Below, piece by piece: positions 1 to 48,015 of a DNA stretch of 48,015 nt. Source of the DNA: Chitinispirillales bacterium. Lineage in GTDB: Bacteria; Fibrobacterota; Chitinivibrionia; Chitinivibrionales; Chitinispirillaceae. The notes under the pieces are model-generated. The model had not been told where the DNA came from and searched no databases. It saw only the letters and a list, made by a program, of their open reading frames with translations. The stretch lies in NCBI GenBank assembly GCA_031286265.1, contig JAITUP010000132.1:1-48015 (forward strand), read 5' to 3'. Positions within the stretch are counted from its first letter, which is position 1. The number at the start of each line of letters is the position of its first letter. The position numbers and the translations under genes were made by a program.

Positions 1-119
1 GCCGTCATTGCGAGTGCCCAGCTCACCGTCATTGCGGGCTTGACCCGCAATCCCCAACGACAAGATTACATAGGGGGATTGCGGGTCAAGCCCGCAATGA
101 CGGCTTTTGAGACAGCCCC
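1..119. repeat. Palindromic repeat family P, copy 1 (left arm cut by window edge; carries an extra nested 28-nt inverted pair)
   Basis: Right arm CGCAATGACGGCTTTTGAGACAGCCCC (93-119) recurs at 17949-17975 and 33002-33028. 28-55 and 74-101 are perfect reverse complements. Spacer AGTGCCCAGCTCACC (13-27) is identical to 17916-17930. Confidence 0.85.
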
Positions 120-512
120 TCACTCACTTCGAGCATAGTCTATCTCCCGTAACGCCCCCATTTTAAAACCGACTTACGCTAAAACCCTTACCCTTAAAAC
201 CATACGGGCGGGTGTAATGCTAAAGTCAAAACAAGTCGATGGTGTGGTTTGGTTTTTGATTTTAGCATTTTTACCCCGATAGTATGCCCACATGTCCCCC
301 GTAAGCGGTCGCCGCTTATGGGGGACCGTAGGGGGCTTATGTATCGGGGCGTTACGGGGCAGAGCCCCGTCCCCAAAAAAGATCAAAAAAAAACTACTGA
401 TATTGCCCCGTCCCCAAAAAAGATCAAAAAAACTACTGATATTGCTCCGTCCCCCAAAAAAACAAAGCCAAACTCAATAGATAGTCGAGGTCAATTACCG
501 CCGGGTTAATAT
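120..512 (+). repeat. Composite non-coding element family R1, copy A (long form)
   Basis: Shares blocks with 17756-18108: CCCGTAACGCCCCCATTTTAAAACCGACTTACGCTAAAACCC, the TAAAGTCAAAAC hairpin, GCCCACATG, TATCGGGGCGTTACGGGGCAGAGCCCCGT and the tail AATTACCGCCGGGTTAATA. Also shares blocks with 3639-3814. 120-145 matches the inverted copy at 43811-43837. Confidence 0.85.
365..462 (+). repeat. Tandem duplication inside R1 copy A (about 2.4 units of 39-41 nt)
   Basis: Unit CCCCGTCCCCAAAAAAGATCAAAAAAA(AA)CTACTGATATTG at 365-405 and 406-444, with a partial third unit at 445-462. Units are directly adjacent. Confidence 0.9.
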
Positions 513-3347: not shown

Positions 3348-3376
3348 CCGCTCTTAACCCATCAATCATTTCCGCA

Positions 3377-3433
3377 GGAAAACCCCGATTGTTGGGTTAT
3401 GTTTCGTTCCAGCGTAACATTGAAATTTAGCCC
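3377..3433 (-). repeat. 3'-flank repeat family R2, copy 1
   Basis: 3394-3433 matches 4399-4438 at 38 of 40 positions. 3377-3389 (GGAAAACCCCGAT) is identical to 5139-5151. Confidence 0.85.
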
Positions 3434-3638
3434 AAATTTTCCATTAAGAGATAAATCTAGTTTAAAACCTTTTTTAAAAGCTATTTTTTTAAAAAGGTCC
3501 GCCTGACCCTTTGCCATAACTCGATAATGTTTGGGACAACAAAGGCTCGTCTGAACGGAAAGGGCGATGTTCATTCTAAGCATGGTGTAGTTTTGGCTTC
3601 GCCGAAATAAACTAGTTGGCTTCGCCGAGATAAAGAAG

Positions 3639-3814
3639 TTGATTTTAGCATTTTTACCCCGATAGTATGCCCACATGTCCCCCGTAAGCGGTCGCCGCTT
3701 ATGGGGGACCGTAGGGGGGCTAATGTATCGGGGCGTTACGGGGCAGAGCCCCGTCACCAAAAAACAAAGCAAAACTCAATAGATAGTTGAGGTTAATTGC
3801 CGCCGGGTTAATAT
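3639..3814 (+). repeat. R1 element, copy B (short form: promoter-like box, hairpin, GC hairpin, tail)
   Basis: Near-identical to 256-364 plus 455-512 of copy A. Ends with AATTGCCGCCGGGTTAATAT. Confidence 0.9.
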
Positions 3815-4007
3815 ATCCAAGCAATGTAAGTTGACCGAGCATCTTGAATTTATAGACATGAAGCCACGATAAATCACCCTTCTTTTGCTCACCTATATTG
3901 AAATCGGCGATTATCGCTTCAATGGCCGTATGTAGATCGGCCAGTTGATTTTTATGCAGTTTTTTGTAAGCTTTCCTGAAACGGTTAGTCTGCCTTACTA
4001 TCATCAT
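3720..4007 (-). CDS. RelE/ParE-family type II toxin, C-terminal part replaced by R1 repeat sequence (probably disrupted)
   Basis: The N-terminal 65 aa (TNRFRKAYKKL...KKGDLSWLHVYKFKMLGQLTLLGY) look like a RelE/ParE toxin. From codon 66 onward the ORF is translated from the R1 copy B tail (3720-3814). The start overlaps the antitoxin stop (ATGA). Confidence 0.6.
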   Translation of the reverse strand: MMIVRQTNRFRKAYKKLHKNQLADLHTAIEAIIADFNIGEQKKGDLSWLHVYKFKMLGQLTLLGYINPAAINLNYLLSFALFFGDGALPRNAPIH

Positions 4008-4347: not shown

Positions 4348-4438
4348 CCCCCCCGACAACAATGAATAGCCAGTTATCGGGGGGTGATGGCGATTAATGG
4401 ATTATGTTTCGTTCCGGCGTAACATTGAAATTTAGCCC
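4348..4438 (-). repeat. 3'-flank repeat family R2, copy 2 (both hairpin modules)
   Basis: Hairpin B at 4348-4384 resembles 5145-5176. Hairpin A plus tail at 4399-4438 resembles 3394-3433. The last two codons and stop of hepT lie inside it. Confidence 0.85.
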
Positions 4439-5138: not shown

Positions 5139-5225
5139 GGAAAACCCCGATAACAATGGATAGCCTGTTATCGGGGATAGTAGCTGTTGAGCTATTTGAC
5201 GGTGTTGGTTTCGTTCCAACGGCCC
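5139..5225 (-). repeat. 3'-flank repeat family R2, copy 3
   Basis: CCCCGATAACA-loop-TGTTATCGGGG at 5145-5176 is followed on the minus strand by TTTTCC. GTTGG-TTTCGTT-CCAAC at 5204-5220 overlaps the last codons of the 5192-6364 gene. Confidence 0.75.
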
Positions 5226-6364
5226 ATACTTATGGCTGGGGTGCTGCTTCCATCGCTGATAAATTCACAATCCCCCGCTTCACAAGCATCAGTGCGGTGA
5301 CATTGATGGGGATCTATCATTATTCGAGCTTTCACTCCTCGCATAATCTTGGTTGTGTCATTAATGCTAATTTGGCGTGTCATAAATGAGCGTACGGTTA
5401 TCGGCCCGACAAAATTCCCCCTTCGTGGCATAAACGCGTTAGGATGAGAGGATTCCGGACGATCCCGATTAGTCCGGTGGTCACAGTTCATTCTTGCGTT
5501 ATCACCTTGGGTATGAGGTCCCCCCCACTTATGCACCGCTATGGTACGTTTGTTGGTACCAGTATTCTCCGGATCAATGGAATAATCCCTTCTGGTATCA
5601 TTATTAGGGGCGCTAGTCCCTCCAGCATGAATAGGATCGGGATTGCTCGGGGTCCAATCGCTGGCCACAGTTTCACCAGGCCCGCCCAAGCCCAGTGTAT
5701 AATCGCAAAAGTTATCGTTTGCATTCACCACTCCCACCTGAGCTCCAAGCTTCCAACAGTCATCGCCACTGGGGATTTCCAACCAAATTGATTTTCCGGT
5801 CGGGGAAACGCAAATGTCAAAACCACGACAGTCCCACGGATTGGCACAATCTCCCAACCTCACCACCATTTGGGTTGGCAATGTCGAACCCCCGTCATCA
5901 TCCAAGGGCGCGTCACACTCCTCATCGGATCCCTCCACAATCTCAGGATCCCCGGTCCCCGGGACTCCCTCCACCGTTCTCAAATCCCATGACAAAGTTT
6001 TGGTATACCCCAAATCTCCTACATTAGCAGTTGACCGCAAGTGCCACTCGTCGTCATTCGGGAAACTTGATACATTTACTACTTCAAGGGCAACAGGAAT
6101 GCCGTCTATCTCGATATTCCCCTCTCCAGTTCTCAGCTCTCCATGTTCTCTAAACGTTCCCCTAACCCAGCTTTCAAGCATGTCTAACCCCCCTTCCGCC
6201 GCTAAAAACGCCCTCACCTCATTATGCGCGTCCACCTCCTGGCTGAGCGTATTTCTCGAAACTCCCATCAGTCCGGCCACTCCTATGGCCATAATCAGCG
6301 TAATTACGACTGCTCCGACCAGTGTCGACCCGTCATTTTTTTTCATTCGGCCCAATTTAAACAT
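5192..6364 (-). CDS. PilX-N-like (type IV pilus minor pilin-like) protein with Cys-rich C-terminal region
   Basis: 390 aa. The N-terminus GSTLVGAVVITLIMAIGVAGLMGVSRNTL...AFLAAEGGL resembles the PilX N-terminal domain. GAGGAG sits 7 nt upstream of the ATG. Confidence 0.6.
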   Translation of the reverse strand: MFKLGRMKKNDGSTLVGAVVITLIMAIGVAGLMGVSRNTLSQEVDAHNEVRAFLAAEGGLDMLESWVRGTFREHGELRTGEGNIEIDGIPVALEVVNVSSFPNDDEWHLRSTANVGDLGYTKTLSWDLRTVEGVPGTGDPEIVEGSDEECDAPLDDDGGSTLPTQMVVRLGDCANPWDCRGFDICVSPTGKSIWLEIPSGDDCWKLGAQVGVVNANDNFCDYTLGLGGPGETVASDWTPSNPDPIHAGGTSAPNNDTRRDYSIDPENTGTNKRTIAVHKWGGPHTQGDNARMNCDHRTNRDRPESSHPNAFMPRRGNFVGPITVRSFMTRQISINDTTKIMRGVKARIMIDPHQCHRTDACEAGDCEFISDGSSTPAISMGRWNETNTVK

Positions 6365-6437
6365 AGTCTAACTCCTCTTGTTACTAGAATTATAAAGGAT
6401 TATTATATTATTATAGGGAGTATGCTAATATGGCGGC

Positions 6438-6469
6438 TGTACACTTTAAACGTACGTTTAAAGTGTACA
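6438..6469. promoter_or_regulatory. Perfect 32-bp palindrome, operator candidate
   Basis: TGTACACTTTAAACGT|ACGTTTAAAGTGTACA with 16/16 arms. Located in the divergent intergenic region between 6364(-) and 6785(+). Confidence 0.6.
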
Positions 6470-6551
6470 ACTCCCCCCACCGTAAAAATTTTCAAAAACA
6501 TCGTTTTTCGGTCAATTAACCGCGTTTTCATTTTTTGGCGAACCCAAAAAA

Positions 6552-6587
6552 GTTGTCTAATTTAAACGTACGTTTTCCATAGACAAC
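6552..6587. promoter_or_regulatory. Second, related palindrome sharing the AAACGTACGTTT core
   Basis: GTTGTCT-AATTT-AAACGT|ACGTTT-TCCAT-AGACAAC. The outer 7 bp and the inner 6 bp of each arm pair, and the middle 5 nt do not. Confidence 0.5.
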
Positions 6588-6704
6588 CGTGGTATTTTTT
6601 TTCGGCGGTTACGCCGATTTCAGGCCGCTTACTCCAATATAATGCATGGTAGTTTAAAAAGCAATTTTAAAAATAAAAAAAAATTACATTATTTCAAAAA
6701 AAAT

Positions 6705-16494: not shown

Positions 16495-17649
16495 TTAGTT
16501 TTCAGCGTTTATCGCGATTGTCGCCGCGAAATAATTCACGATGTCCGATTTACGGACGGCAGCCGTTTTTGCCTTGGTATTGACCTTTACCGCTTTTAAT
16601 TTGTGCAGCGTGGCCAAACCGTTTTTCACGATCGTCGCGGGTGTCAATTCGTCGAGCGTTTTGCAATTCCGCCCGTCTTTTACAAGCGACGATTTCAATT
16701 CGCCCGCGCCCCGTACCAGATCAATCATAGACACGGTTCCGTCGCCCGATCTCAATAGCAACGCCGATACTATGTGCACCGGCAATATTCTGTACAGTGA
16801 AACGAGCAGCTTGCGTATCTCCGCGCCCGCGATGTCGAGCGAGGCTCTGTGCGCCGCGAACTCGTCTCTTGCGCCCTGTATCCGGTTGGCCTCCAAATCC
16901 ACGAGCGACCTGACCGAGACCGGCTTGCCGTAGTCCATGTAGGCCGCGCCGTATTTGCGTCCGAAAAATCTTGCGAGCATAAACGGTGCAAACGCCGCAA
17001 GATCGGCTCCGAAATAGTATAAATTACCTAAAATTTTCTTGATAAAATTACTCTTGCCCTTGCGCAACTTTTTACCTTTGAGCAATAGCGAGAACCAAGG
17101 CACGTCGGGCGGGCGTTCGTAGGAGACCGCCGTGGGCAGAAGGAAAACATCACGTTCGGGATTGGCCGCCTGGAGCATCAGCGCGGCGTTGAGTATCCCG
17201 CCGCGTATTTCGAGCATCCCGCCGCTGTAGCTGCGGCCTCCTTCGGGAAAAACGAGCACCGAGTCTCCGTCGTTGAGCATTTCGATAACTTTTGCGCACA
17301 GGTTGCGCACGTAATGGCGCTCAAACCCGCTGTCGCGTGATACGGCGAAAGCTCCGAACGTAAGAAACTTCGGCCCGATCCATGGCAGCTTAGTGAGGTT
17401 GTCTCCAGCCGCGAAACGTATGTTTCTAAAGCCCATCAGGCAAAATTTCGAGCCTATCAAAAAATAGTCGGCGTGGCTCCTGTGCGTGCCGACAAACATG
17501 ATCGGCGATTTTTGCACTTCAAGCGGGTCCATGTCGGGGCCGTCAAAACGCACCTCGGAAAACGTCTTTTCAAAAAATTTCACAACGCCGGCGCTGACCC
17601 TTGCCACTTCGTTGTGGTAGTTTTTTTCATTTTTTGCTTTTTTGGACAA
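16495..17649 (-). CDS. PlsB/PlsC-like glycerolipid acyltransferase
   Basis: HRSHADY (Hx4D) and FPEGGRSYSG acyltransferase motifs. The track start is TTG at 17649, with GGAG 10 nt upstream. Confidence 0.75.
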   Translation of the reverse strand: MSKKAKNEKNYHNEVARVSAGVVKFFEKTFSEVRFDGPDMDPLEVQKSPIMFVGTHRSHADYFLIGSKFCLMGFRNIRFAAGDNLTKLPWIGPKFLTFGAFAVSRDSGFERHYVRNLCAKVIEMLNDGDSVLVFPEGGRSYSGGMLEIRGGILNAALMLQAANPERDVFLLPTAVSYERPPDVPWFSLLLKGKKLRKGKSNFIKKILGNLYYFGADLAAFAPFMLARFFGRKYGAAYMDYGKPVSVRSLVDLEANRIQGARDEFAAHRASLDIAGAEIRKLLVSLYRILPVHIVSALLLRSGDGTVSMIDLVRGAGELKSSLVKDGRNCKTLDELTPATIVKNGLATLHKLKAVKVNTKAKTAAVRKSDIVNYFAATIAINAEN

Positions 17650-17673
17650 AGCTGGTTGTCTCCGTTAGAAACA

Positions 17674-18108
17674 TTAAAATCAAAATCTTTAAAATCTTCA
17701 AAACCTTAAAAGCCTTAAAGTCAAAATCTTTTTTTGGGGACAGGGGCTCCGCCCCCGTAACGCCCCCATTTTAAAACCGACTTACGCTAAAACCCTTATC
17801 CTAAAACCCTACGGGTGGGTGTAATGCTAAAGTCAAAACATAACGTGGTTTTGACTTTAACATTTATACTCCCATAATACGCCCACATGGGGCTGTCTCA
17901 AAAGCCGTTATTGCGAGTGCCCAGCTCACCGTCATTGCGGGTCAAGCCCGCAATGACGGCTTTTGAGACAGCCCCTATATATCGGGGCGTTACGGGGCAG
18001 AGCCCCGTAACCAAAAGATTTTTAAAAAGATTTTGATTTCAATCTTTTAAAACAAAACCCTATTGATATTGCCCCAGATAATTAAGAACAATTACCGCCG
18101 GGTTAATA
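17674..18108 (+). repeat. R1 element, copy C (most complete; contains nested P copy)
   Basis: Inverted ends: left AAAATCTTT-type 9-nt array plus GGGGC-TCC-GCCCC and CGTAACGCCCCC (17743-17767). Right GGGGCGTTACGGGGC-AGA-GCCCCGT (17984-18008) plus AAAGATTTT array. Internal hairpin at 17823-17864 and tail AATTACCGCCGGGTTAATA. Confidence 0.85.
17889..17975 (+). repeat. Palindromic repeat family P, copy 2 (nested in R1 copy C)
   Basis: Outer arms 17889-17915 and 17949-17975 pair at 26 of 27 positions. The inner hairpin 17931-17941/17947-17957 shares 17949-17957 with the outer stem. Confidence 0.9.
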
Positions 18109-18172
18109 ATACATGGTTTTACGCATCAATGAATATAATATAATTCGTGCGGGATATGTATATTTATTGTAT

Positions 18173-19063
18173 ATGAATGCTAACGTCCCCAATCCTGTCC
18201 CTGCCCCTGCCGACCAGATTCGTGTGATACGTAATAAGGTTAGGGGGCTTTTGAAGCATGAAGAGCGGAAACTCCTTAAGCAGCGGGCGGAGGTTGAGGA
18301 GGCCGGAATGTTTGGAAAATACGCCGAAATCGCCGATTCGCTTATGGCCGACCTTGCCGCGGCGCCGAGGGGGACGGCTAAAACCGTCATCAAAAATATT
18401 TACACGGAAACAGGCGTGGAAGTCACGCTAAATCCCGCGCTCGACGCGACGCGCAACGCGGAGCTCTACTACCGGCGGGCGCGGAAAGGGCGGCGAGGAT
18501 ACGAAACCGCGACGGCGATGGCCGCGGAGACGGCGGAGCGGATTGATAAACTGAAGACCGTTATATTGGATATAGACGCTGTCGTCGCCGCCGCCGATCC
18601 TCTTGATGCCGCCGTCGACAGCGTCCGCGAGATAGCCGCCGAATTTTTGCCGGAAGAAAGCGTAAACGCCAAAGGACGCCCGAAAAACGTACCGCCGCCT
18701 CCGCCGTTCAAGAAGTACACGATCGACGGATGGGAAGTATACATGGGTAAAACCAGCAGGCAAAACGACGAACTGTCCATACATTTCGCCAAGCCGTCCG
18801 ATCTATGGTTGCACGTGGTTGGCTACGCCGGCAGCCATGTCATCATCCGCCGAGCCAAAAATGTGCCTTATCCGCCGCCAAACGTTATCCAAAAAGCCGC
18901 GCAGATAGCCGTATGGTTCTCAAAAGCCAAACACACGTCGTTCGCCGAGGTTCACGTGACTGAGGCGCGGTTTGTCAGAAAACGCCGGAAAGCGCCGCCG
19001 GGGGAGGTCATAGCGGAGCGGTGCAAGACGGTCAGAGTGGAGCCGAAAAACCCGGAATTATAG
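18173..19063 (+). CDS. NFACT-R (DUF814) domain protein, RqcH C-terminal-half-like
   Basis: YTIDGWEVYMGKTSRQNDELSIHFAKPSDLWLHVVGYAGSHVIIR is a DUF814 signature, preceded by a coiled-coil region. The alternative ATG 18113 lies in the R1 tail, so 18173 is preferred. No obvious RBS. Confidence 0.7.
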   Translation: MNANVPNPVPAPADQIRVIRNKVRGLLKHEERKLLKQRAEVEEAGMFGKYAEIADSLMADLAAAPRGTAKTVIKNIYTETGVEVTLNPALDATRNAELYYRRARKGRRGYETATAMAAETAERIDKLKTVILDIDAVVAAADPLDAAVDSVREIAAEFLPEESVNAKGRPKNVPPPPPFKKYTIDGWEVYMGKTSRQNDELSIHFAKPSDLWLHVVGYAGSHVIIRRAKNVPYPPPNVIQKAAQIAVWFSKAKHTSFAEVHVTEARFVRKRRKAPPGEVIAERCKTVRVEPKNPEL

Positions 19064-19284: not shown

Positions 19285-22200
19285 ATGTCTACCAAACAAT
19301 TGAGCGCTATACTGCTTGTAATTGCGCTGTTCGCGATGTCGGCGTTCGCGCAGAGGCCTTGTCCGCCAACCGCGGATATCTGCGTGTCGCAAAATATGAT
19401 GGGGCCGGGAAACCTGAACGGTGATGAAGCCCATTTTACATCCATTCAGACGGCTGTGAACGCTGCGCAGCCAGGGCAAGTGATTGAGATCCTTGATACT
19501 GCCGTCTACACGGAGCAGGTACTCATCTTTGGTATGGAAAATCCGGGGCCAAACGACAACGTGGCCGCGCCTGTCGGTGTTACGGGTGGCAAAAACGGTA
19601 TCACCATAAGGTATACGCCCGTGGGTGGCTGGAGTACGAACGGGCCGCTTGCTGGCGGGCACTCAAGGCCGACCATACTCCATCGAGACATGGCCAACAT
19701 AAGTCCACAGAACCAAACTCAGGCCCAAAACGAGGGGCTGTCGTTGAATCATAGCGGAAATTTTCATACCAACGGGGCACTCCGGATTATTGCCGCGCAG
19801 AACATTATCATTGATGGCATACGCGTAGATGGCGGTGGGCGCTTTACCTACGGTACTAGTGATTTGGGCGGTTGGGACCTTGCGCATGGCAACGCCGGTA
19901 TAGCCGTGACGAATTCCGGCAGTGTGATAATCAGAAATGTAGAGGTGGTTAACGCGGCGCACGGCATATATGTTTGCGACAGGAATATAGGAGGAGTATT
20001 CGCCAACCGCAACCCGCACGACAACATCCCATCGATACCGCTCGGGAATTACGGCCAAATGGGGAACCATATTTTCGAATACAATCGCATACACCAGAAC
20101 AACGTGGGTATGTATTTCCACAGTGTTTGGGACCTTGGGTCAACTATCAGATTCAACCTCATTTTCGATAACTTCATAACCGTCCCGTGGGGGAATCAAG
20201 GGCCCGAAGATCAGCGGAGGGGCGGGGGAATAAGGACAAGAGACATGAGGCAAACGCCGCTTACCATACACAACAACACATTCCATAACAACAGGGTGCA
20301 CATTGAGGGAGCGTGGCAGTCGGGGAACCAGCATTTGCAGTACAACAATATATACGGTTCGACCAATAACTTGGGATCTGCTGGTGTTAACCATCCCGAT
20401 GACGGTTGCGCGGGTACTGATAGCAAAAACATCAGATGTTTCACGCGTACTATGCATGCCTCGGTGATGGCCGCATCGCCCACCGGGCAGAACCAAAACT
20501 ACCAATATGAGTTGCAGGAAGGGAATGGAACGCCGCAAGATCCCTGCCAATATTGGAATCCGCGGGTAGGCGCTGGCTGGCCGCTTGTATTGCAGAGTTG
20601 TGTGAACTTCCCTCACGCGCTGTTCCCTCCCATAAGGAATGCGTGTCAAGCTCAGTTTCCGAGTGGACAGCAACTCAGCGCTGCCGGGCTTACCATATCG
20701 CCTCCTCCTCCCATAGGCACTCACACTGTGACTTCACCGGTTACCGGAGATACGGTCCCGGCCCCGTGTTGGATGTTTATACAAGGCATGAGCGGCCCTG
20801 GAAGTGGTACCGCGCCCGGCACTGTGATACCCAATTTCCTATCCAACAGTGTGTACTGGCTTCAGGTTGGGGGAGAGTACGGGCAACCGCTGTTATTCCA
20901 GAGCACCAACCCGAACGCCTCAAATTTTCTCCATCCCACTTGGAGCGGCGGCGGTGTGGGAACGCCTGAGGCCCAAGCGCTGGTTGGGTCGCACATAGAA
21001 GCGCAGGGCTGGCTAAGCGCGGTCGCCCCGGGCGCCCAGCGCCCGGACCTCGGCGCGATTCAACGTAGCGGCTGGCAGCCTACCATTACGGCGCGTATAC
21101 ACTCTCCGTTCCCTGTTGTGGTGGCCAACAACGGTAACCCGAATGTAACCAATCCGGAACTCACTCTGATGTTCCACCTTACGGTTGAGGACGAAAATGG
21201 TCGTCACGTGACTTTGGAAAATGCGCAGATACATTTTATGAGGTGGAATACTGTCACCTGCCGCTCTAATCCTCAGCCTTGGAACCCTTCCGAGATCGCT
21301 TGTGACGGCGCTGCCAACGTTAACATTGGCGCTCCTGTAGCTCCAACTGTCAGTCCTAACATAATTTCCAACGGCGTTACCACGTTCAATCAGCAGTTTA
21401 CGGGTACGCTCCCGTTGGAACCGAGCATCGGTTACTACGAGATAATCGTGCGTGGTACGGTGGATGGTCAGACGGTAGTATCCAATGTGGGTATTTTGCC
21501 TTACCGCAGGTTGGAGCACCAGATAGTTATGGGGGTATACAACAGTTCTGACGCTACTGTCGAACTCACCAGTATTCAGGCTGGCCAAGCTGCGGAACTC
21601 CGTGTACGGGTTCAGGGGCCTGTGGGTACGCAAAGCCTCCCTCCGCTTCATAGAGTAGACTACAGTCTTACATCCAATACGCTGGCGGAGATGTGGTGCG
21701 GAACACACCAGCCTGCCGGCGGCGGTTCTCCCGGTACCGGGCGCTGTACGCCGGGGACAGTTCAGGGCCTTCCAAATATATATGCCCGCCGTCCGGATTT
21801 GACCGGCCGTCCTTTGAGGCAGGATAACAATATATTGGGTATAAACTCTAACGTTCCGGTTGTTGTCAGGTACCCCATATTTTTTACAAGGGCCGGCAAC
21901 GAGACTATTTATGCGTCGGGTGAGATTTGTCAAATGCCTCTGAACAATCTTGGTAATTGCCCGGACGGTCAAGCGATTCAGTTTTTGGGCATAAAAACCA
22001 TTACAGTTACTCCCGGCCCCGCCGAGCGTGTCGGTTTTGTATCTCCCATGCCTCGTAGCCAACTTGAAGACCCGTTTGGCGAAGGCGCTTGCAGGAGGCT
22101 TGATGAAGGCGGCCCTGGGCCGGGCGTATGCCACAACGCGACGACTATTTCCCGTGGTTTGACCGGCTATCCGGTTGATGTTGAGGTGCAGGACCGTTTC

Positions 22201-25098
22201 GATAACTTGGTCACTTCACCGCCTGTGGAGGTTGCTATCAGTTCCCATAATATCAATATCGGAGATGTGGGTAACCGTACCAGTGCGGATCTTAGTAATA
22301 AGAGTGCCACGACCAACGCCGATGGCATTGCCGAATTTCGTGCCCGCGTTACCTTTGGCGAGCAGCTTCAATTTTTCGATATGACGGCGCTTCTCCCCGG
22401 GCACGCAAACCCTCCTTCAACGCAGGATATCGCCCGATTGAGGGTTGGGCGTCCGCTCAATGCGCTAATGGTGTTTTTCTCGGACGGTTTCCAGTATGGC
22501 CCCGGCGGCGACACGGTACTGGTAGGCGGCGTTCCCGCAGTCAACCAGAATCCCAACTGGAACGAATATTGGAACGATATGCGTGAGATAAACGAGCAGA
22601 TTAGCGAAACACGCCACATGATAATAATTAAGGCGGCTTCTCCGGATGGTGTGATTACCGAATGGGGAGGCGCTACTACCGGCCCGCGCTGGGTTCGGGT
22701 GACTCCCGATGAGCCCACACCCGGTGAATTCGTACGTCTTTTTGCCGGGCCGACAGGCGGTGAACCGACCAACGTGTTCACGGTTCAGCCTGGCGGCTAT
22801 GCCGTTGCATGGATCGCCCCAAATACGAGCAGAACCTCGGACATTCACACTAGTGTAACCGTTAACCCATGCCGGGATGCGGCTTGCACACAACCGGATA
22901 CCGACTTGGAGCCCGGTTGGCGTGGTAACATAAGATTCTTCCCGTCCGATATGAACGTACGCTACGGCGCTGTGTTCGCCGCCAACAATGGAAACGGCAG
23001 ACCGGACTCTCTTATGTTCCGCTTTGAGGATCAGTCGGAAGGCGACATCAGAGGCTTCCTGGATCCGAGCGGCGGCATCCCTGCGCCGCGAAGTGTGACT
23101 TTCTACTGGCCAAGGCATAATTCCGCTGCCGCTTCCTACGAGCGCAGGCAGGAGATAACGGTGACGACAAACCAAGCGCCTACCGCCACCACCGGTTGCT
23201 TCAATTTTGAAGTGGGCGGATTTGACTTGGGCGTCAGTCTCACCAACAGCGCTTGCAACGTTATTGTTAGGGATGTCCATGGCGAGGTAGTGCCTGGAGG
23301 CGTCGGTGCGATTCACAACGGATACACTAACATTGACGGTGGCGCAAACAGATTTGCCACGCTGGCCTTAATGGGTACTGAGGAAGGTGAAGAAGGTCGT
23401 GTCTTTACCGGATTTTCTGTTTACGATGGTCTGGGTCCCATAATAGCCTTGACCAACGAGGGCCAAACTTTGGTTGATAATGGTATAGTCGGCAGACGTA
23501 GCCCCGGTATCGTTGAAAATCTCAACAGTTGCGCGGTAAATCCGGCGAATCCGGATTGCCAGTCTGACGTACTCAGAATTCAGACAACGGAAGCAATTAG
23601 AGGGGCGTTAATCGGTAATGCCTATGTCGGTAACAACATCATACAGATGTTGGAACTTGATGACAGCGCTAACCCGAATGCCCCATACAACGCCGGTGCC
23701 GGTGCTCAGAATTTGATAATTACCGGCGTGGGCTCTCGCTTGCACAGCTACAGCAATGAACTCTGGCTGACGCTTGCGGACAACAGCCCCGCTCCGAGGC
23801 TTGAGGATGGCGCGTCGCCGGGCAGAAGTTTTTGGATACGCCTTAATCCGGAATCGGATAACGGCTTTGAAGATTTTGCCCAAAACGCTCCTAACTGGCC
23901 GGAGAACATGCGGCCGCACCCGCAGAACCGCTGGGTACAGGTGGTCTTGATACCTACCCCACCGGCGATTAACCCCGGCGCGTGGTACACGAGCGACGAC
24001 AGAACCGGCTTCCTCGACACGGCGGTAGTGGTGTTCAATAAGCCGGGCAATATTCAAGATTGGCTTGTGGGTGGAAGCCTCAGACTTGGAAGCGGAGGGA
24101 CCGATGAACGTGAGGTTACGTACGCTGATATAGGCACGAACATCCGTTGGTTAGGCGGTGGCGGCAGAGACTCCATCTTGGTGATTGACCTTCAGTGGCT
24201 CCATAGGAGTAGGACCGGGTTGGTCACGACATCCGGTGTTCCACAGCTCTTTATTACCTTCAGCCCCGGAATGGGATGGGATGTGCTAACAACTCCCCTC
24301 GCAGACCACGCATCGCCGGTTCTCGCAAACGATCGCGACAACAATACGGATAATCCGCGCGTGGCCCTGCTGACTTTCAGCCCGGTTGGAGATAACGACC
24401 AACCAATCGGCAACGACACGCTCAGGGTAAGGTTCAGCGAGCCTGTCGACTTTGCGGGAAGGATCAACATTTTGCAGTTGCATGTGCACAGTACCGGTCA
24501 GGTGATACCCTTGCCTATTGGAGATCGGCACATTCGGACTGTTGGCGCGGGCGGACAATTCATAGAGGCTACGTTTGAGCTTGATCCGCAAGTTTTGGCG
24601 GGTATCAATCTCACATCCGGGTTGGATAGTCTGCGTATTATCCCGGATGAGATCCGAGATGTGGCCACGGACCCGAATTGGCAGATGCACCCTGAAAACC
24701 GCGCGGTGCCGCTTGTTCTCGACTACAAGTCCAACTGGACAGACGTCGCTAAGAACAACCCCGGCAGAAACGATCCCGACAGGCGCTTTGAGATCGTAAT
24801 CAATCGCGGCATCGGAAACGTGTTGCAGGAGTTCACCGCGGAGTTTGTCTTATACAACAATATGGGTAACGTTGTATTAAGGGAAAAAATTGATATGCAA
24901 ACCGATCCGGAAAGAGCGCGCGGTTCTTCGCTCGTGTGGAGTTGGGACGGCCGTAACCATCGTGGCCGCCTTGTGGGCACCGGCACCTATCTCCTCCGCG
25001 CCAACATCATCTCGGATGTCATAACCGAGGGCGGCGCGGTCGACATGAGTCAACGCGACACCCACACAATCAACCGCCTGATCGGATTCGTGAGATAA
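19285..25098 (+). CDS. Giant secreted protein (1937 aa) with parallel beta-helix region and FlgD-Ig/T9SS-like C-terminal domain
   Basis: Signal peptide MSTKQLSAILLVIALFAMSAFAQ. Beta-helix-like repeats (NIIIDGIRVDGGG, GIAVTNSGSVIIRNVEVVNAAHGIYV). C-terminal WSWDGRNHRGRLVGTGTYLLR motif. AAGGAG RBS. Confidence 0.85.
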   Translation: MSTKQLSAILLVIALFAMSAFAQRPCPPTADICVSQNMMGPGNLNGDEAHFTSIQTAVNAAQPGQVIEILDTAVYTEQVLIFGMENPGPNDNVAAPVGVTGGKNGITIRYTPVGGWSTNGPLAGGHSRPTILHRDMANISPQNQTQAQNEGLSLNHSGNFHTNGALRIIAAQNIIIDGIRVDGGGRFTYGTSDLGGWDLAHGNAGIAVTNSGSVIIRNVEVVNAAHGIYVCDRNIGGVFANRNPHDNIPSIPLGNYGQMGNHIFEYNRIHQNNVGMYFHSVWDLGSTIRFNLIFDNFITVPWGNQGPEDQRRGGGIRTRDMRQTPLTIHNNTFHNNRVHIEGAWQSGNQHLQYNNIYGSTNNLGSAGVNHPDDGCAGTDSKNIRCFTRTMHASVMAASPTGQNQNYQYELQEGNGTPQDPCQYWNPRVGAGWPLVLQSCVNFPHALFPPIRNACQAQFPSGQQLSAAGLTISPPPPIGTHTVTSPVTGDTVPAPCWMFIQGMSGPGSGTAPGTVIPNFLSNSVYWLQVGGEYGQPLLFQSTNPNASNFLHPTWSGGGVGTPEAQALVGSHIEAQGWLSAVAPGAQRPDLGAIQRSGWQPTITARIHSPFPVVVANNGNPNVTNPELTLMFHLTVEDENGRHVTLENAQIHFMRWNTVTCRSNPQPWNPSEIACDGAANVNIGAPVAPTVSPNIISNGVTTFNQQFTGTLPLEPSIGYYEIIVRGTVDGQTVVSNVGILPYRRLEHQIVMGVYNSSDATVELTSIQAGQAAELRVRVQGPVGTQSLPPLHRVDYSLTSNTLAEMWCGTHQPAGGGSPGTGRCTPGTVQGLPNIYARRPDLTGRPLRQDNNILGINSNVPVVVRYPIFFTRAGNETIYASGEICQMPLNNLGNCPDGQAIQFLGIKTITVTPGPAERVGFVSPMPRSQLEDPFGEGACRRLDEGGPGPGVCHNATTISRGLTGYPVDVEVQDRFDNLVTSPPVEVAISSHNINIGDVGNRTSADLSNKSATTNADGIAEFRARVTFGEQLQFFDMTALLPGHANPPSTQDIARLRVGRPLNALMVFFSDGFQYGPGGDTVLVGGVPAVNQNPNWNEYWNDMREINEQISETRHMIIIKAASPDGVITEWGGATTGPRWVRVTPDEPTPGEFVRLFAGPTGGEPTNVFTVQPGGYAVAWIAPNTSRTSDIHTSVTVNPCRDAACTQPDTDLEPGWRGNIRFFPSDMNVRYGAVFAANNGNGRPDSLMFRFEDQSEGDIRGFLDPSGGIPAPRSVTFYWPRHNSAAASYERRQEITVTTNQAPTATTGCFNFEVGGFDLGVSLTNSACNVIVRDVHGEVVPGGVGAIHNGYTNIDGGANRFATLALMGTEEGEEGRVFTGFSVYDGLGPIIALTNEGQTLVDNGIVGRRSPGIVENLNSCAVNPANPDCQSDVLRIQTTEAIRGALIGNAYVGNNIIQMLELDDSANPNAPYNAGAGAQNLIITGVGSRLHSYSNELWLTLADNSPAPRLEDGASPGRSFWIRLNPESDNGFEDFAQNAPNWPENMRPHPQNRWVQVVLIPTPPAINPGAWYTSDDRTGFLDTAVVVFNKPGNIQDWLVGGSLRLGSGGTDEREVTYADIGTNIRWLGGGGRDSILVIDLQWLHRSRTGLVTTSGVPQLFITFSPGMGWDVLTTPLADHASPVLANDRDNNTDNPRVALLTFSPVGDNDQPIGNDTLRVRFSEPVDFAGRINILQLHVHSTGQVIPLPIGDRHIRTVGAGGQFIEATFELDPQVLAGINLTSGLDSLRIIPDEIRDVATDPNWQMHPENRAVPLVLDYKSNWTDVAKNNPGRNDPDRRFEIVINRGIGNVLQEFTAEFVLYNNMGNVVLREKIDMQTDPERARGSSLVWSWDGRNHRGRLVGTGTYLLRANIISDVITEGGAVDMSQRDTHTINRLIGFVR

Positions 25099-25130: not shown

Positions 25131-25175
25131 GGGGCGGCCAAAGGAAAAGGCCGCCCCTTATTTTGTTGTTTTTTT
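25131..25175 (+). terminator. Rho-independent terminator after the giant gene
   Basis: GGGGCGGCC-AAAGGAAAA-GGCCGCCCC, a perfect 9-bp stem, followed by TTATTTTGTTGTTTTTTT. Confidence 0.85.
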
Positions 25176-25245
25176 GGATAGACTTTAGGTGGGGCGTTAC
25201 GGGGGAGCGCATTTTGCGCCCCGTCCCCCGAGAAAGACTTTTAAA
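25176..25245. repeat. R1 element fragment, copy E (solo end)
   Basis: GGGGCGTTACGGGG...CCCCGTCCCCCGAGAAAGACTTTTAAAAG resembles the R1 hairpin end plus AAAGATTTT-type flank. GATAGACTTTAGGTGG resembles the inverted 134-147/43801-43818 block. Confidence 0.6.
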
Positions 25246-32925: not shown

Positions 32926-32938
32926 CAATCAAAGGGTA

Positions 32939-33028
32939 GGGGTCTGTCTCAAAAGTCGTCATTGCGGGCTTGACCCGCAATGACGGGGTGGGCTGGGCGC
33001 TCGCAATGACGGCTTTTGAGACAGCCCC
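32939..33028 (-). repeat. Palindromic repeat family P, copy 3 (stand-alone, opposite orientation to copy 2)
   Basis: Aligns along its length to the reverse complement of 17889-17975. Ends 41 nt upstream of the Rpn-family gene. Confidence 0.9.
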
Positions 33029-33068
33029 TCACCCGAAATAATAAAAAATTCTCTAAGAGACGGAAAGC

Positions 33069-33983
33069 ATGGCGAAAATATCACCCGCAAAACGCAAAAC
33101 TTCCGTGAGGCCCGCCGCCAAAGAAGCAAAATCGCCCAAACCGCGCAATAAGTGGACTAGGGTTTTTGTCAACGTAATGACTCACCTGCTTGCCAATTAT
33201 GAAGTTGATATTATCCCCGAATACGAGCTCTACAAGGATCCAATGCGAATTGATGTTGTTGTTATCAAACTTTTGAAAAATGTCGTCATCGACAACACGG
33301 TAATGCGTTTTTTTAGAAAGCACAATATCGTCGAGTTCAAAGGCCCTACCGATACTCTGAACATAAAAGCGTTCGACAGGGTTTTGAGCTATTTTTATGC
33401 CTACTTGTCCAAAAACTCAACACCGTTCAATGAGGCTACAATAACATTCGTCACCGTCAGACGACCAGAAAAATTGTTAGGAATATTGGAAAGGGAGCGA
33501 GAATACAAAATAATCGCATCGGATCAATCTGGAATCTATTATATTGCTACAGGAGCGCAGATTGGCGGCATTCCGGCGATGCAGCTGGTAATAAGCAGCG
33601 AGCTAAGCGCCGAAGATGCCGAGTTGATAAAGGCTATAAGAAACGATTGGACGCTGGAATATGGTATCGAATTATTAGGGAAAATTGAGGATGCTCATAT
33701 TGATCCTCAATTGCGAGAAATACTTTTTTCACTTGGCTCCGCCAATAACCATATTTTGGAAAGGGATATGGACATGACTGCAGAAGAAAAGAGGTTTAAG
33801 AAGCTTATCGATGATTGGGCTGTCACTACCGGTCTTACCGAGAAGTGGAAGCAGGAAGCTTGGCTGGAAGGCATTGAAGAGGAACGAAAGAAAAATGCCA
33901 AAGCTATGAAAACCGAAGGGATAGACGTGAACACCATAGCCAAAATTACAGGGCTAACGGTCAACGCCATCAAGCAAATGTAG
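33069..33983 (+). CDS. Rpn-family recombination-promoting nuclease / putative transposase (PD-(D/E)XK)
   Basis: 304 aa. RIDVVVIKL...NIVEFKGP nuclease-core pattern and a C-terminal helical region ending ...IAKITGLTVNAIKQM, typical of this family as I recall it. Confidence 0.6.
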   Translation: MAKISPAKRKTSVRPAAKEAKSPKPRNKWTRVFVNVMTHLLANYEVDIIPEYELYKDPMRIDVVVIKLLKNVVIDNTVMRFFRKHNIVEFKGPTDTLNIKAFDRVLSYFYAYLSKNSTPFNEATITFVTVRRPEKLLGILEREREYKIIASDQSGIYYIATGAQIGGIPAMQLVISSELSAEDAELIKAIRNDWTLEYGIELLGKIEDAHIDPQLREILFSLGSANNHILERDMDMTAEEKRFKKLIDDWAVTTGLTEKWKQEAWLEGIEEERKKNAKAMKTEGIDVNTIAKITGLTVNAIKQM

Positions 33984-43714: not shown

Positions 43715-43756
43715 GGTCAAGGTTGTATGGCAATCGCTGTATGGATTACCGATTAT

Positions 43757-43952
43757 ATCCCCCGTAATTGGTTTTAGGATACGGGTTTTAGCGTAGTCGG
43801 TTTTAGGTGGAGATGGACTATGACCGAAGTAAGTGAGAATGTACAGTGTACATTCCGTCCTTTGGTTGAGAGAGGGGCTCTGTGGGGGGCGCGTGCGGAA
43901 GCACATCTTGCCCCCCGTCCCCAAAAAAAGATTTTAAAGATTTTGACTTTAA
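43757..43952 (-). repeat. R1 element, copy D (left half only, inverted) between atpB and atpD
   Basis: GGTTTTAGGATACGGGTTTTAGCGTAGTCGGTTTTAGG is the reverse complement of the 17768-17812-type block. CCCCGTCCCCAAAAAAAGATTTTAAAGATTTTGACTTTAA matches the inverted left end at 17705-17746. Confidence 0.8.
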
Positions 43953-43966
43953 TAAGGTGACGATTA

Positions 43967-47066: not shown

Positions 47067-47151
<85 letters not shown>

Positions 47152-47181
47152 GGGGTTTTTTTGGGGGGTATATGGCGTAGA

Positions 47182-47733
47182 TTAATTGCTTAGATTGGCA
47201 ATATGATTGAATTGGAGCCGCCCAGGGCTATATATCTTCATCGCTGTTTCTGGAGTACTATGAGTTTGTTTTTCTTTGTCAAGCCTTGTTTTTCTTTTAC
47301 GGCTGATATGGCGAATATTTATAAATTGATTTTTATAGCCAGCTAAAAAATCTTTTTTATTCCAAAATACATTGGCAATTTCTTGACAATATTTGACAAA
47401 GCACTGAGCACCTTTAAATTGCTTGACAATTTTTCCCCAACTATCCCTCATCATCTTTAGTTCAACGTATAGTATACATTTTTTTTCTACGCTAATAATT
47501 ATATAATCGGCACGTTTACATTCACCTTTTTCACCTTTGAAAATATTATCAAGTGAAAAGCAAGCATCTGCTTTGATAACGATAGTATCTAATGGTGGTT
47601 GATATATAGTTACATTAGAATCAGGTATCTCTGGCTCATTAAGTAGGATATACGGTTTATCGTATTCATTAAATTGCAGAGCTATCAATGCGGTGTCTTT
47701 GATCATTTCGTTAAGGATGTCAGTATCTGTCAT
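47182..47733 (-). CDS. Hypothetical protein with PD-(D/E)XK-like nuclease motif
   Basis: 183 aa. RAD76[15 protein letters not shown]91-L-K93 fits a D...ExK core on predicted beta strands. AT-rich gene, 3 nt downstream of the preceding ORF. Confidence 0.5.
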
Positions 47734-47736
47734 CGC

Positions 47737-48015
47737 CTACCCCCAAACGATTTCATCTTGAATTCGGTTCATTTCATCTATAGTTCTGTCAAAGCACTTA
47801 GCCTCTATTCCAAGTTCGTTGTCAATATCGGCGGGAATAAGGGTTTGACACTTGGTTTTCCGCTCGCTCCCGTCAAGCTTGATACGGGCTTCTTCGGCCA
47901 TATACACCCGTACTTTTTGAGGGTCAAGCAATTCCGATACTTTGTATTTCTCACGTTCAGCAAGAGCCTCAAGACGTTCCCCGCCCCGATTAAGCATGAT
48001 TAAAGTATTGAGTTC
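47737..48015 (-). CDS. Hypothetical protein, 5' end probably outside the window
   Basis: The reading frame stays open to the window edge. The first ATG is at 47997. No recognisable motif. Confidence 0.4.
   Translation of the reverse strand, partial: ELNTLIMLNRGGERLEALAEREKYKVSELLDPQKVRVYMAEEARIKLDGSERKTKCQTLIPADIDNELGIEAKCFDRTIDEMNRIQDEIVWG

Follow-up and report, generated by a model that had tools for sequence, protein, structure and literature searches.

To our knowledge, interspersed mosaic repeats have been characterized almost only in Proteobacteria, Firmicutes, and a few Bacteroidetes. Among them, the REP, BIME, and REPIN repeats of Enterobacteria, Pseudomonas, and Stenotrophomonas go together with RAYT transposases (PMC2817692, PMC3116915), and the head of a REP is a conserved GT(A/G)G that adjoins the palindrome (PMC2817692). 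BrickBuilt, a MITE (miniature inverted-repeat transposable element) from Porphyromonas gingivalis with an internal minisatellite, is made of leader, tandem-repeat, and tail subunits and has inverted ends; it lies 49 to 591 nt from genes, carries promoter-like sequence, and varies in the number of its repeat units (PMC4596501). Here we describe R1, a repeat family present in contig JAITUP010000132.1 of a Chitinispirillales bacterium (48,015 nt, analyzed over its full length and called the window below), whose fullest copy, copy C, occupies positions 17674 to 18108. R1 is an undescribed, lineage-restricted, modular, "junk-like" intergenic repeat family of some termite-gut Chitinispirillales, and for Fibrobacterota (class Chitinispirillia) it would be the first of its kind on record. 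It is best read as a REP/BIME- or MITE-like non-autonomous repeat family, working like a REP/BIME mosaic and apparently standing outside every described family. A full-text literature search returned neither the 14-mer used as our search key nor any description of such repeats for Chitinispirillia, Treponema, or Fibrobacter.

An earlier note on this DNA had pointed to five loci with near-identical non-coding blocks (copies A to E; coordinates in Table 1). Self-comparison of the window recovered every block listed there, above shuffle expectation, and all five loci proved to have related blocks. Copies A and B were identical over 80 nt (256-335 and 3639-3718, 100%), with adjoining blocks at 93 to 96%. 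Copies A and C had four blocks in common at 82 to 95% identity, the best reaching 95% over 56 nt (146-201 versus 17754-17809), and copies C and E two 26-nt blocks, inverted, at 96%. For its part, copy D had only the hairpin unit (HP) in common with the remaining window copies. Motif counts clearly exceeded those expected from dinucleotide-preserving shuffles of the window: GGGGCGTTACGGGG (up to 2 mismatches) was found 7 times versus 0.32 expected, CCCCGTCCCCAAAAAA 6 times versus 0.08, the tail motif AATTRCCGCCGGGTTAATA 3 times versus 0.03, and the AAAGATTTT dimer 3 times versus 0.11. HP was present in 6 intergenic copies in 48 kb, and more were found in 23 related loci.

R1 is a mosaic of separable modules without fixed ends, not a single element. 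The modules are HP, an A/T-rich tandem array with a period of 6 to 9 nt, an optional block of three TAAAACC motifs, an internal hairpin, a slot that can hold a second element (R2), and a genome-specific tail, and the copies built from them take one of three forms: short, with two arrays, or long with inverted arms. HP alone is present in all copies. The anatomy previously given for the fullest copy (arms, array, TAAAACC at 17772, 17788, and 17802, internal hairpin, and tail) was confirmed base by base. The view of one five-part element with defined termini was not, as the modules are combined differently in the three forms. Since the five parts are separable modules, the common denominator of R1 is HP plus the adjoining array. 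Inverted ends were likewise borne out in part: copy C does have inverted arms, but its outer ends are not sharp, because the number of array units differs between arms and between copies. The contents of the slot vary by copy, as had been proposed, but in copy C the occupant is the separate palindromic element R2 and not a hairpin of R1 itself; copies A and B carry a different hairpin there, and in locus L122 the slot is empty.

Copy C consists of two HP units placed head to head. Its left array, for which Tandem Repeats Finder (TRF) gave 4.3 copies of 9 nt at 17682-17719, points at the start of an acyltransferase gene (17649, or the ATG at 17631). The left HP is predicted to fold into a 4-bp outer helix, a CGUU bulge, and an 8-bp inner helix (-19.4 kcal/mol), with a G.U pair on the minus strand that is an A x C mismatch on the opposite strand. 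Copies A and E keep the TAAAACC block, as do 15 metagenome loci, and two copies in locus L129 that the search pattern missed retained the TAAAACC heptamers with altered spacers. An imperfect counterpart of the internal hairpin was found in copy A (218-275) and in L122, and no intergenic counterpart of the tail module in any fetched locus. The probable start of the NFACT gene, whose database protein has 296 amino acids (aa), lies at 18173, 64 nt past the tail.

As a whole, copy C is predicted to fold into one long hairpin on either strand (z = -11.7 for plus and -10.4 for minus); as the z-scores are similar, folding energy did not serve to choose its strand. Such a fold (z of about -11), the inverted arms of copy C and L122, and the small, non-coding, intergenic, and patchily distributed nature of R1 speak for a classical MITE. 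The long form, with inverted arms of about 85 nt, would then be a deletion derivative of a DDE-type insertion sequence (IS) moved by the transposase of that IS, and the short forms would be decayed halves. We consider this quite unlikely, since a second arm is missing from most copies (the inverted pair is not seen in the short and two-array forms), each arm runs out into an array of variable length instead of a defined terminus, and the conserved tail lies outside the inverted arms. Besides, no checkable copy was flanked by a direct repeat, and neither the window nor 26 loci showed an IS whose ends match. A MITE accompanied by an autonomous IS with the same ends was accordingly rejected, with no transposase found in the window or the fetched loci.

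The HP is an imperfect palindrome of 27 to 38 nt with the structure GGGG-CGTT-AC-stem-loop-stem-GT-CCCC. Its head (GGGGCGTTAC) and its foot (GT, usually followed by CCCC) are fixed, the top of the stem and the loop vary freely, and its foot side almost always adjoins a tandem array that is A/T-rich and has a period of 6 to 9 nt. The 14 distinct variants from Chitinispirillales are predicted to fold alike, with a 4-bp GGGG/CCCC outer helix, a 4-nt CGUU bulge, an inner helix of 6 to 9 bp starting AC...GT, and a loop of 3 to 4 nt (-14 to -23 kcal/mol). The invariance of the 14-mer results from ascertainment, since it served as the search key. The covariation check that the earlier note had proposed gave a positive result for stem positions 5 and 6. 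Among the 117 distinct variants from all fetched loci, position 5 was paired in 96 (GC in 70, CG in 19, AT or TA in 6, GT in 1; shuffle mean 66, maximum 81) and position 6 in 74 (shuffle mean 44, maximum 62). These compensatory changes indicate that HP is under structural constraint, and they fit DNA and RNA equally well. In 5 of the 14 variants, the GGGGCGTTAC (gene-sense) strand has a G.U pair where the opposite strand has A x C. Such a pair, present in one sub-lineage, is a weak hint that the constraint may act on the gene-sense strand.

In several respects, HP resembles a REP. Both are short, imperfect, GC-rich palindromes whose head is fixed and whose top varies, and HP falls within the 20 to 40 nt, extragenic and at multiple loci, by which such repeats are recognized (PMC2817692, PMC3116915). 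Like these repeats, it occurs as single or inverted-pair units, forms mosaics with other short motifs, and would be cotranscribed with its neighbors; the Pseudomonas fluorescens REP GTGGGAGGGGGCTTGCCCCCGAT even resembles HP variants such as GTTACGGGGGCTTGCCCCCGT. However, HP carries the head GGGGCGTTAC in every copy (the 14-mer being the search key), with no GTAG or GTGG at the stem in the window copies. It also differs in its 4-nt bulge and outer GGGG/CCCC helix, in the micro- or minisatellite array on each unit, and in its host, which belongs to Fibrobacterota and not to Proteobacteria. No HP-flanked RAYT gene was found in the window or among 106 open reading frames (ORFs) of the repeat-bearing contigs.

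In function and architecture, the nearest analogs of R1 are the REP, BIME, and REPIN elements, BrickBuilt, and the BOX, Correia, and ERIC repeats. R1 and BrickBuilt (the latter species-restricted) are both intergenic, modular repeats of the Fibrobacteres-Chlorobi-Bacteroidetes group with variable unit number. BrickBuilt, in contrast, is built on one 23-nt repeat with small inverted ends and lacks a dominant GC hairpin (PMC4596501), and it has no sequence similarity to R1; the arrays of R1 have a period of 6 to 9 nt (plus 39- and 62-nt higher-order repeats) and lie outside the hairpin. R1 also shares with BOX of pneumococcus and with Correia and ERIC a modular A-(B)n-C build, a variable number of modules, folding into long hairpins, and a position near gene starts or within operons. 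BOX, Correia, and ERIC elements can affect mRNA processing and expression. Correia elements, however, have defined 26-nt inverted ends and a TA duplication, whereas R1 has neither definable ends nor a duplication, and it shows no sequence relation to BOX, Correia, or ERIC.

When metagenomes were scanned for the TAAAACC block, 15 JGI contigs with related copies came up. The alignment of 18 copies, from the window and these 15 loci, revealed that a core of about 95 nt is conserved while its flanks vary: an A/T array, then TTTGGGGAC(A)GGGG-loop-CCCCCGTAACGCCCC, N3-6, and TAAAACCGACTACGCTAAAACCCRTATCCTAAAACC. The core continues in one of three ways, namely, as a short form with TTACGGGGGAT at its end (window copy E, L115, L125, and L126), with a second array of AATCAAC- or CATCAA-type units (Ga0123356 contigs), or as a long form with an inverted second arm (window copies C and A, L122, and L119). 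An nhmmer search recovered 20 full cores, 3 of them in one 12.6-kb contig (L129). Loci from Chitinispirillales metagenome-assembled genomes (MAGs) that were found through HP had only HP and the array in common with R1, and combined these with other G/C hairpins, a perfect 9-nt array of 7.3 copies, or a 62-nt tandem repeat of 3.1 copies (L069).

A lack of further copies had been named by the earlier note as a point that would speak against mobility, but related copies do sit elsewhere, at unrelated loci between housekeeping genes in several genomes. The distribution of the family is patchy. Six other Chitinispirillales contigs (loci L130-L135 and L151-L153), picked solely by homology to V-ATPase subunit D or NFACT, gave about 95 kb of non-redundant sequence, in which no R1 module was found. 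Orthologous junctions differ accordingly. In L152, which has the same gene order as the window (GHMP kinase, aldo-keto reductase, AAA/DUF4143, DAC, acyltransferase, and divergent NFACT), the acyltransferase-NFACT spacer is repeat-free and 86 nt long, versus 523 nt with copy C in the window. Similarly, the spacer between V-ATPase subunits B and D spans 83 nt in L133 versus 252 nt with copy E in the window, and in L130, L132, and L135 it is occupied by small, unrelated genes without any R1. The sole gene alike at the DNA level between the window and a copy-bearing relative was 76.5% identical, versus 100% over 80 nt for copies A and B. Taken together, these data argue for lineage-specific gain and for recent copying or homogenization of R1. 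They fall short of proof of transposition, because the relatives are distant (64 to 94% protein identity) and no clean empty site with a target duplication was found.

We consider it somewhat probable that R1 arose by non-autonomous spread of HP-plus-array units through an enzyme acting in trans, together with array slippage, module exchange, and transcript effects that are incidental or secondarily exploited. The mode of mobilization, as well as any effect on expression, we infer as follows. Units of HP and array would spread as non-autonomous DNA, HP being the recognition site for the enzyme supplied in trans, and a single-strand-specific enzyme of the HUH/Y1 type would suit both the fixed-head design of the hairpin and the strand bias. 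Arrays would expand and contract through replication slippage, and modules would be exchanged through recombination. Inserted copies would be cotranscribed with the flanking genes, and a hairpin with an A/U-rich array beside a start codon could have side effects on mRNA stability, insulation, or initiation. The guess of a mobile element made in the earlier note gains support from extra copies elsewhere, patchy distribution, and two junctions without R1, but not with respect to termini, a target-site duplication, or an autonomous partner.

Several points weigh against such a spread. The 39 ORFs scanned in the window, which encode housekeeping, toxin-antitoxin, or unknown proteins, include no transposase, integrase, recombinase, or RAYT, and no recurrent candidate for a mobilizing gene emerged among 106 ORFs from 26 repeat-bearing contigs, where the recurring families were ABC transporters, radical SAM proteins, response regulators, and similar. 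For R1 we could define neither a target-site duplication nor a sharp terminus; inspection of the flanks revealed fuzzy borders and no direct repeat common to copies. At the "empty" sites of distant relatives (64 to 94%), loss or replacement of the spacer is not separable from insertion, and the genome-wide copy number is an extrapolation. Furthermore, the modest orientation bias described below could equally reflect selection for a function at the transcript level. Finally, a family of Y1-like ORFs, seen near a related Spirochaetaceae repeat, had no member from Chitinispirillales among its best 120 matches.

An ORF of this family, of 168 to 213 aa and with weak similarity to Y1_Tnp (E = 5e-4, under the Pfam cut-off), lies near a related repeat in a termite Spirochaetaceae MAG. 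Among the loci listed it was present at 5 of at least 113 and was not adjacent to the hairpins. The family is highly multi-copy in termite Spirochaetaceae, to which its best 120 matches are confined, and one member is named "RayT" by JGI. It was rejected as the partner of the Chitinispirillales repeats for its position away from the hairpins and the absence of Chitinispirillales from those 120 relatives. In the 168-aa type (L020:6822-7463; relatives in L023, L050, L090, and L110) the HUH region seems altered, with LAFFIKP in the place of H-x-H. In L020, the Y1-like gene stands between direct repeats of about 85 nt, beside a 155-nt repeat headed by HP. Another candidate, the 2.6-kb segment between two inverted copies in L129, which is the only inverted pair at that distance, was discarded as an autonomous element since it holds PTS-EIIA-like, FloA, and other ordinary proteins.

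Palindrome-associated elements (PATEs) of the IS200/IS605 family invite comparison, as they too have subterminal hairpins as recognition sites and strand polarity. TTAC and TCAA are the cleavage sites of IS608, and both are present at the foot of HP and throughout the arrays of R1. However, an IS608-type cleavage site lies outside the element, some 10 to 19 nt from the hairpin, whereas in HP the TTAC belongs to the conserved head and adjoins the stem. PATE hairpins are also co-oriented, whereas those of the R1 long form are inverted, and no TnpA or TnpB gene was found. On this geometry (inverted hairpins and TTAC within the head), membership of the IS200/IS605 PATEs was rejected.

The orientation of the copies shows a polarity trend. 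The array end of HP units points at a gene start in 17 of 24 cases and the opposite end at a gene end in 16 of 23 (one-sided binomial of about 0.03, from crude ORF calls and copies that are not fully independent). Along the genes, the usual order is gene end, GGTTTTA x3, GGGGCGTTAC-hairpin-GTCCCC, AAAAGATTTT array, and start codon. Either selection on transcripts or strand-specific insertion combined with co-orientation of genes and replication is a possible cause, and the data separate neither. In line with the earlier note, R1 is multi-copy, non-coding, and structured and adjoins gene starts, with the array end 12 to 65 nt from start codons at four window loci.

These positions are also what suggests a different origin, in which R1 is a cis-acting expression cassette under selection (a 5' leader, a module for mRNA processing or stabilization, an insulator, or a piece of promoter) that has spread mainly by recombination because it is useful. 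The same polarity in an unrelated HP repeat of spirochetes, whose next downstream gene starts on the same strand in 50 of 74 cases, speaks for it, as does the G.U pair on the gene-sense strand of the 5 variants mentioned above. So do the TTGAC(T/C) boxes that recur in arrays ahead of A/T-rich, -10-like sequence (for example, in L123 and L124 beside a tRNA gene), the 6 promoter-like sites returned by a consensus scan of 17600-18200 versus 1.6 expected, and the precedent of BrickBuilt as a promoter-carrying repeat (PMC4596501). Nevertheless, we hold a cassette to be possible but rather unlikely. No relation links the genes downstream (acyltransferase, NFACT, ROK kinase, V-ATPase D, ABC transporter, and tRNA), some 30% of the copies point at gene ends or lie between convergent genes, and copy B enters the 3' end of a ParE-like ORF on the opposite strand (3720-4007, minus strand; Pfam ParE on residues 4 to 76 of 95). 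Relatives, moreover, manage without R1 at the same junctions. The gap from HP to the ATG is too small for a promoter at the ROK kinase gene (12 nt), atpD (15 nt), L126, and L127, and these copies must therefore lie within the transcript. Hairpin and array modules a few nucleotides from start codons, and within the V-ATPase operon, may tune expression.

The promoter-like match inside copy C (TTGACT-16-CATAAT, 17851-17878), with weaker equivalents in copy A and L122, could also mark the start of a small RNA that would span the slot hairpin and stop at the GC hairpin. Stable hairpins do lie downstream of it, and the HP stem covaries. Yet the GC hairpin is followed by A-rich sequence on one strand and by no U-tract on either, for which reason HP was rejected as a canonical terminator, and a consensus terminator scan returned none in the element. 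Moreover, the short forms and copy D lack the promoter-like part, the content of the slot is swapped or missing, and the structure z-scores are equal on both strands. Nor was there a match in Rfam: at gathering and permissive thresholds, over the window and related loci, R1 matched no family, the sole match in the window being the tRNA-Ser, and the best sub-threshold matches of R1 were microRNA models far under the cut-offs. A family of small RNA genes is therefore highly unlikely, and membership of an Rfam family, with no covariance-model score for R1 reaching the gathering threshold, was rejected. So was a CRISPR array, as the 39-nt (window) and 62-nt (L069) stretches are plain tandem repeats, identical from unit to unit. 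The statement that R1 is not recognizable as an IS end, a CRISPR, or an RNA family hence holds, and the ORFs within it appear, as had been claimed, to be mere translations of the repeat, in agreement with the lack of a Pfam match for ORF 3362-3772.

In the SRR14710892 Logan assembly, two short-read contigs with the genes flanking copy C (L001:1-133 and L154:1-100) both end inside its GC hairpins, which indicates that the repeats fragment assemblies of this lineage. Breaks in both arms in assemblies from the same sample would also be seen with an inverton, in which the 216-nt segment between the long-form arms flips and turns the internal promoter toward either the acyltransferase or the NFACT gene; the position of copy C between divergent genes, its long inverted arms, and its one internal promoter-like site fit this as well. 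The breaks are equally explained by the repeat itself, however, and with no recombinase gene in the window, no second arm in most copies, and no contig of flipped orientation seen, an inverton has very little probability. R1 would account for the fragmentation of MAGs of these termite symbionts, as the source contig and the two short-read contigs end in repeats, and its variable arrays could serve as markers for strain typing.

HP itself reaches beyond Chitinispirillales. A scan of a genome collection with GGGGCGTTACGGGG-N3-25-CCCCGT returned at least 113 loci. About 70 of the matches listed, from Treponema, Spirochaetaceae, Fibrobacter, sphingomonads, Verrucomicrobia, and others, continue alike as ...CCCCGT-AGA-GGGGGTAGCG-hairpin-GAGGGGGAGACTTCCCCC-TTTT; given this common continuation, they are homologous elements of about 95 nt and not chance matches. 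In one Spirochaetaceae MAG the HP repeat lies within a 155-nt unit with GCCTGTTCAAAA inverted ends, and in delta-proteobacterial and Bacteroidales MAGs HP stands in other contexts. In IMG/VR, 15 contigs had the HP pattern, most as the spirochete-type repeat, and neither the TAAAACC block nor R2 was found, so that viral carriers of R1 were rejected. Chitinispirillia MAGs harbor hybrids of Chitinispirillales-type 5' context and spirochete-type 3' continuation (L061), which points to module exchange at the hairpin. In all, HP heads unrelated composite repeats in Fibrobacterota, Spirochaetota, Bacteroidales, sphingomonads, Verrucomicrobia, delta-proteobacterial MAGs, and IMG/VR contigs, and its polarity toward the downstream gene is consistent. 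It is conceivable, though unlikely, that HP is an undescribed recognition hairpin of wide occurrence on which one conserved class of enzyme, or an RNA-binding factor, acts in trans. It would then belong to a REP-like system with a non-GTAG head that crosses phyla and is most visible in gut communities, with R1 as its Chitinispirillales version, which we likewise judge unlikely. If HP were indeed the substrate of one enzyme family, the REP/RAYT paradigm would be wider than the known head motif and host range.

Table 1. Positions of the parts of copy C, the other R1 copies, and further R2 elements in the window
Feature	Coordinates	Strand	Basis
Copy C, left A/T-rich array (AAAATCTTT-type, 9-nt period)	17674..17733	-	Sequence reading; inverted repeat with 18024-18051
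Copy C, left HP; minus strand reads GGGGCGTTACGGGGGCGGAGCCCCTGTCCCC	17737..17767	-	Exact 14-mer at 17753-17766
Copy C, three TAAAACC motifs, iteron-like, 16 and 14 nt apart (17772, 17788, 17802)	17772..17808	+	Sequence reading
Copy C, internal hairpin, two inverted array-like arms TAAAGTCAAAAC / GTTTTGACTTTA	17823..17864	.	Predicted folds
Copy C, sigma-70-like promoter match TTGACT-16-CATAAT, aimed into slot	17851..17878	+	10/12 consensus positions; consensus match only
Copy C, slot filled by R2, 87-nt palindromic element	17889..17975	.	Self-comparison
Copy C, right HP, inverted versus left HP	17984..18012	+	Exact 14-mer; fold -18.0 kcal/mol
Copy C, right A/T-rich array (AAAGATTTT-type)	18013..18051	+	Self-comparison, sequence reading
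Copy C, tail module ending AATTACCGCCGGGTTAATA (18090-18108)	18054..18108	+	Self-comparison; 3 copies versus 0.03 expected
Copy A, long form, left arm truncated (only CCCGTAACGCCCCC at 145-160 left)	120..512	+	Self-comparison
Copy B, right half only: slot hairpin, HP 3730-3758, tail	3639..3814	+	Self-comparison: blocks 100%, 96%, 93%
Copy D, HP with extra loop palindrome (25191-25228) and degenerate array	25176..25245	+	Motif match; fold -19.2 kcal/mol
Copy E, short form, inverted	43757..43952	-	Self-comparison; nhmmer E = 4.8e-13
R2-type compound element, cut by contig end, directly upstream of copy A	1..119	.	Self-comparison
R2, stand-alone, between LTD-domain gene and ORF 33069-33983	32934..33034	.	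Self-comparison

The host is a termite-gut member of Chitinispirillales (phylum Fibrobacterota), and its V-ATPase D subunit has homologues, 83 to 94% identical, that are named Chitinispirillales. The genes adjoining the copies are ordinary: DnaK, ParE/ParD, HepT/MNT, glycerol-phosphate acyltransferase, NFACT/RqcH-like, a 1937-aa protein, ROK kinase, and the V-type ATPase operon. Copy A runs from the TAAAACC block through the internal hairpin, the slot hairpin, HP (346-374), and a 39-nt tandem repeat (TRF, 2.4 copies at 364-461) to the tail. Copy D lies 5' of the ROK kinase ATG (25257) by 12 nt and 3' of a terminator-like canonical hairpin (25131-25175); the latter is preceded by a 1937-aa ORF without a Pfam domain (19285-25098).

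Copy E is composed of an array, a variant GC hairpin, a 68-nt insert, the TAAAACC block, and TTACGGGGGAT. It is located inside the V-ATPase operon, where it occupies the B-D spacer with its array end 15 nt ahead of the ATG of subunit D. This spacer (window 43715-43966) is an insertion hot spot in Chitinispirillales, with contents that differ by lineage: PNPOx and BOF genes, a set of 273-aa, 52-aa, and Zn-ribbon genes, PDZ-like and 71-aa genes, nothing (83 nt), or R1. In relatives, the inserts map to L130:9097-10000, L132:7508-9369, and L135:115-872.

R2 is an independent palindromic repeat family, GGGGCTGTCTCAAAAGCC-GTCATTGCG(A/G)G...CTCGCAATGAC-GGCTTTTGAGACAGCCCC, found three times in the window. 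A diverged R2-like element with the unit GTCATTGCGAGCGAAGCGAAGCAATC is present in a related Chitinispirillales contig (L153:28-170).

Other palindromes were seen near copy B. A 48-nt direct repeat (92%; 3386-3433 and 4391-4438), itself an imperfect palindrome (GGGTTATGTTTCG..CGTAACATTGAAATTTAGCCC), brackets the ParE/ParD cassette, and a second hairpin motif, CCCCGATAACA..TGTTATCGGGG (4348-4400 and 5143-5185), recurs between the ParDE and HepT/MNT cassettes. Palindromes and cassettes together look like a small array of toxin-antitoxin cassettes with recombination-site-like palindromes; by eye, the core departs from the attC consensus of integrons, GTTRRRY. A 46-nt inverted repeat (72%; 6427-6472 and 6551-6596) with TTTAAACGTACGTTTAAA palindromes lies in the spacer that follows ORF 5192-6364. 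At the other end of the window (47067-48015), past the tRNA-Ser gene (47067-47151), the G+C content falls to about 42% and the ORFs have no Pfam match up to the contig end; this region may be the edge of a tRNA-integrated island.

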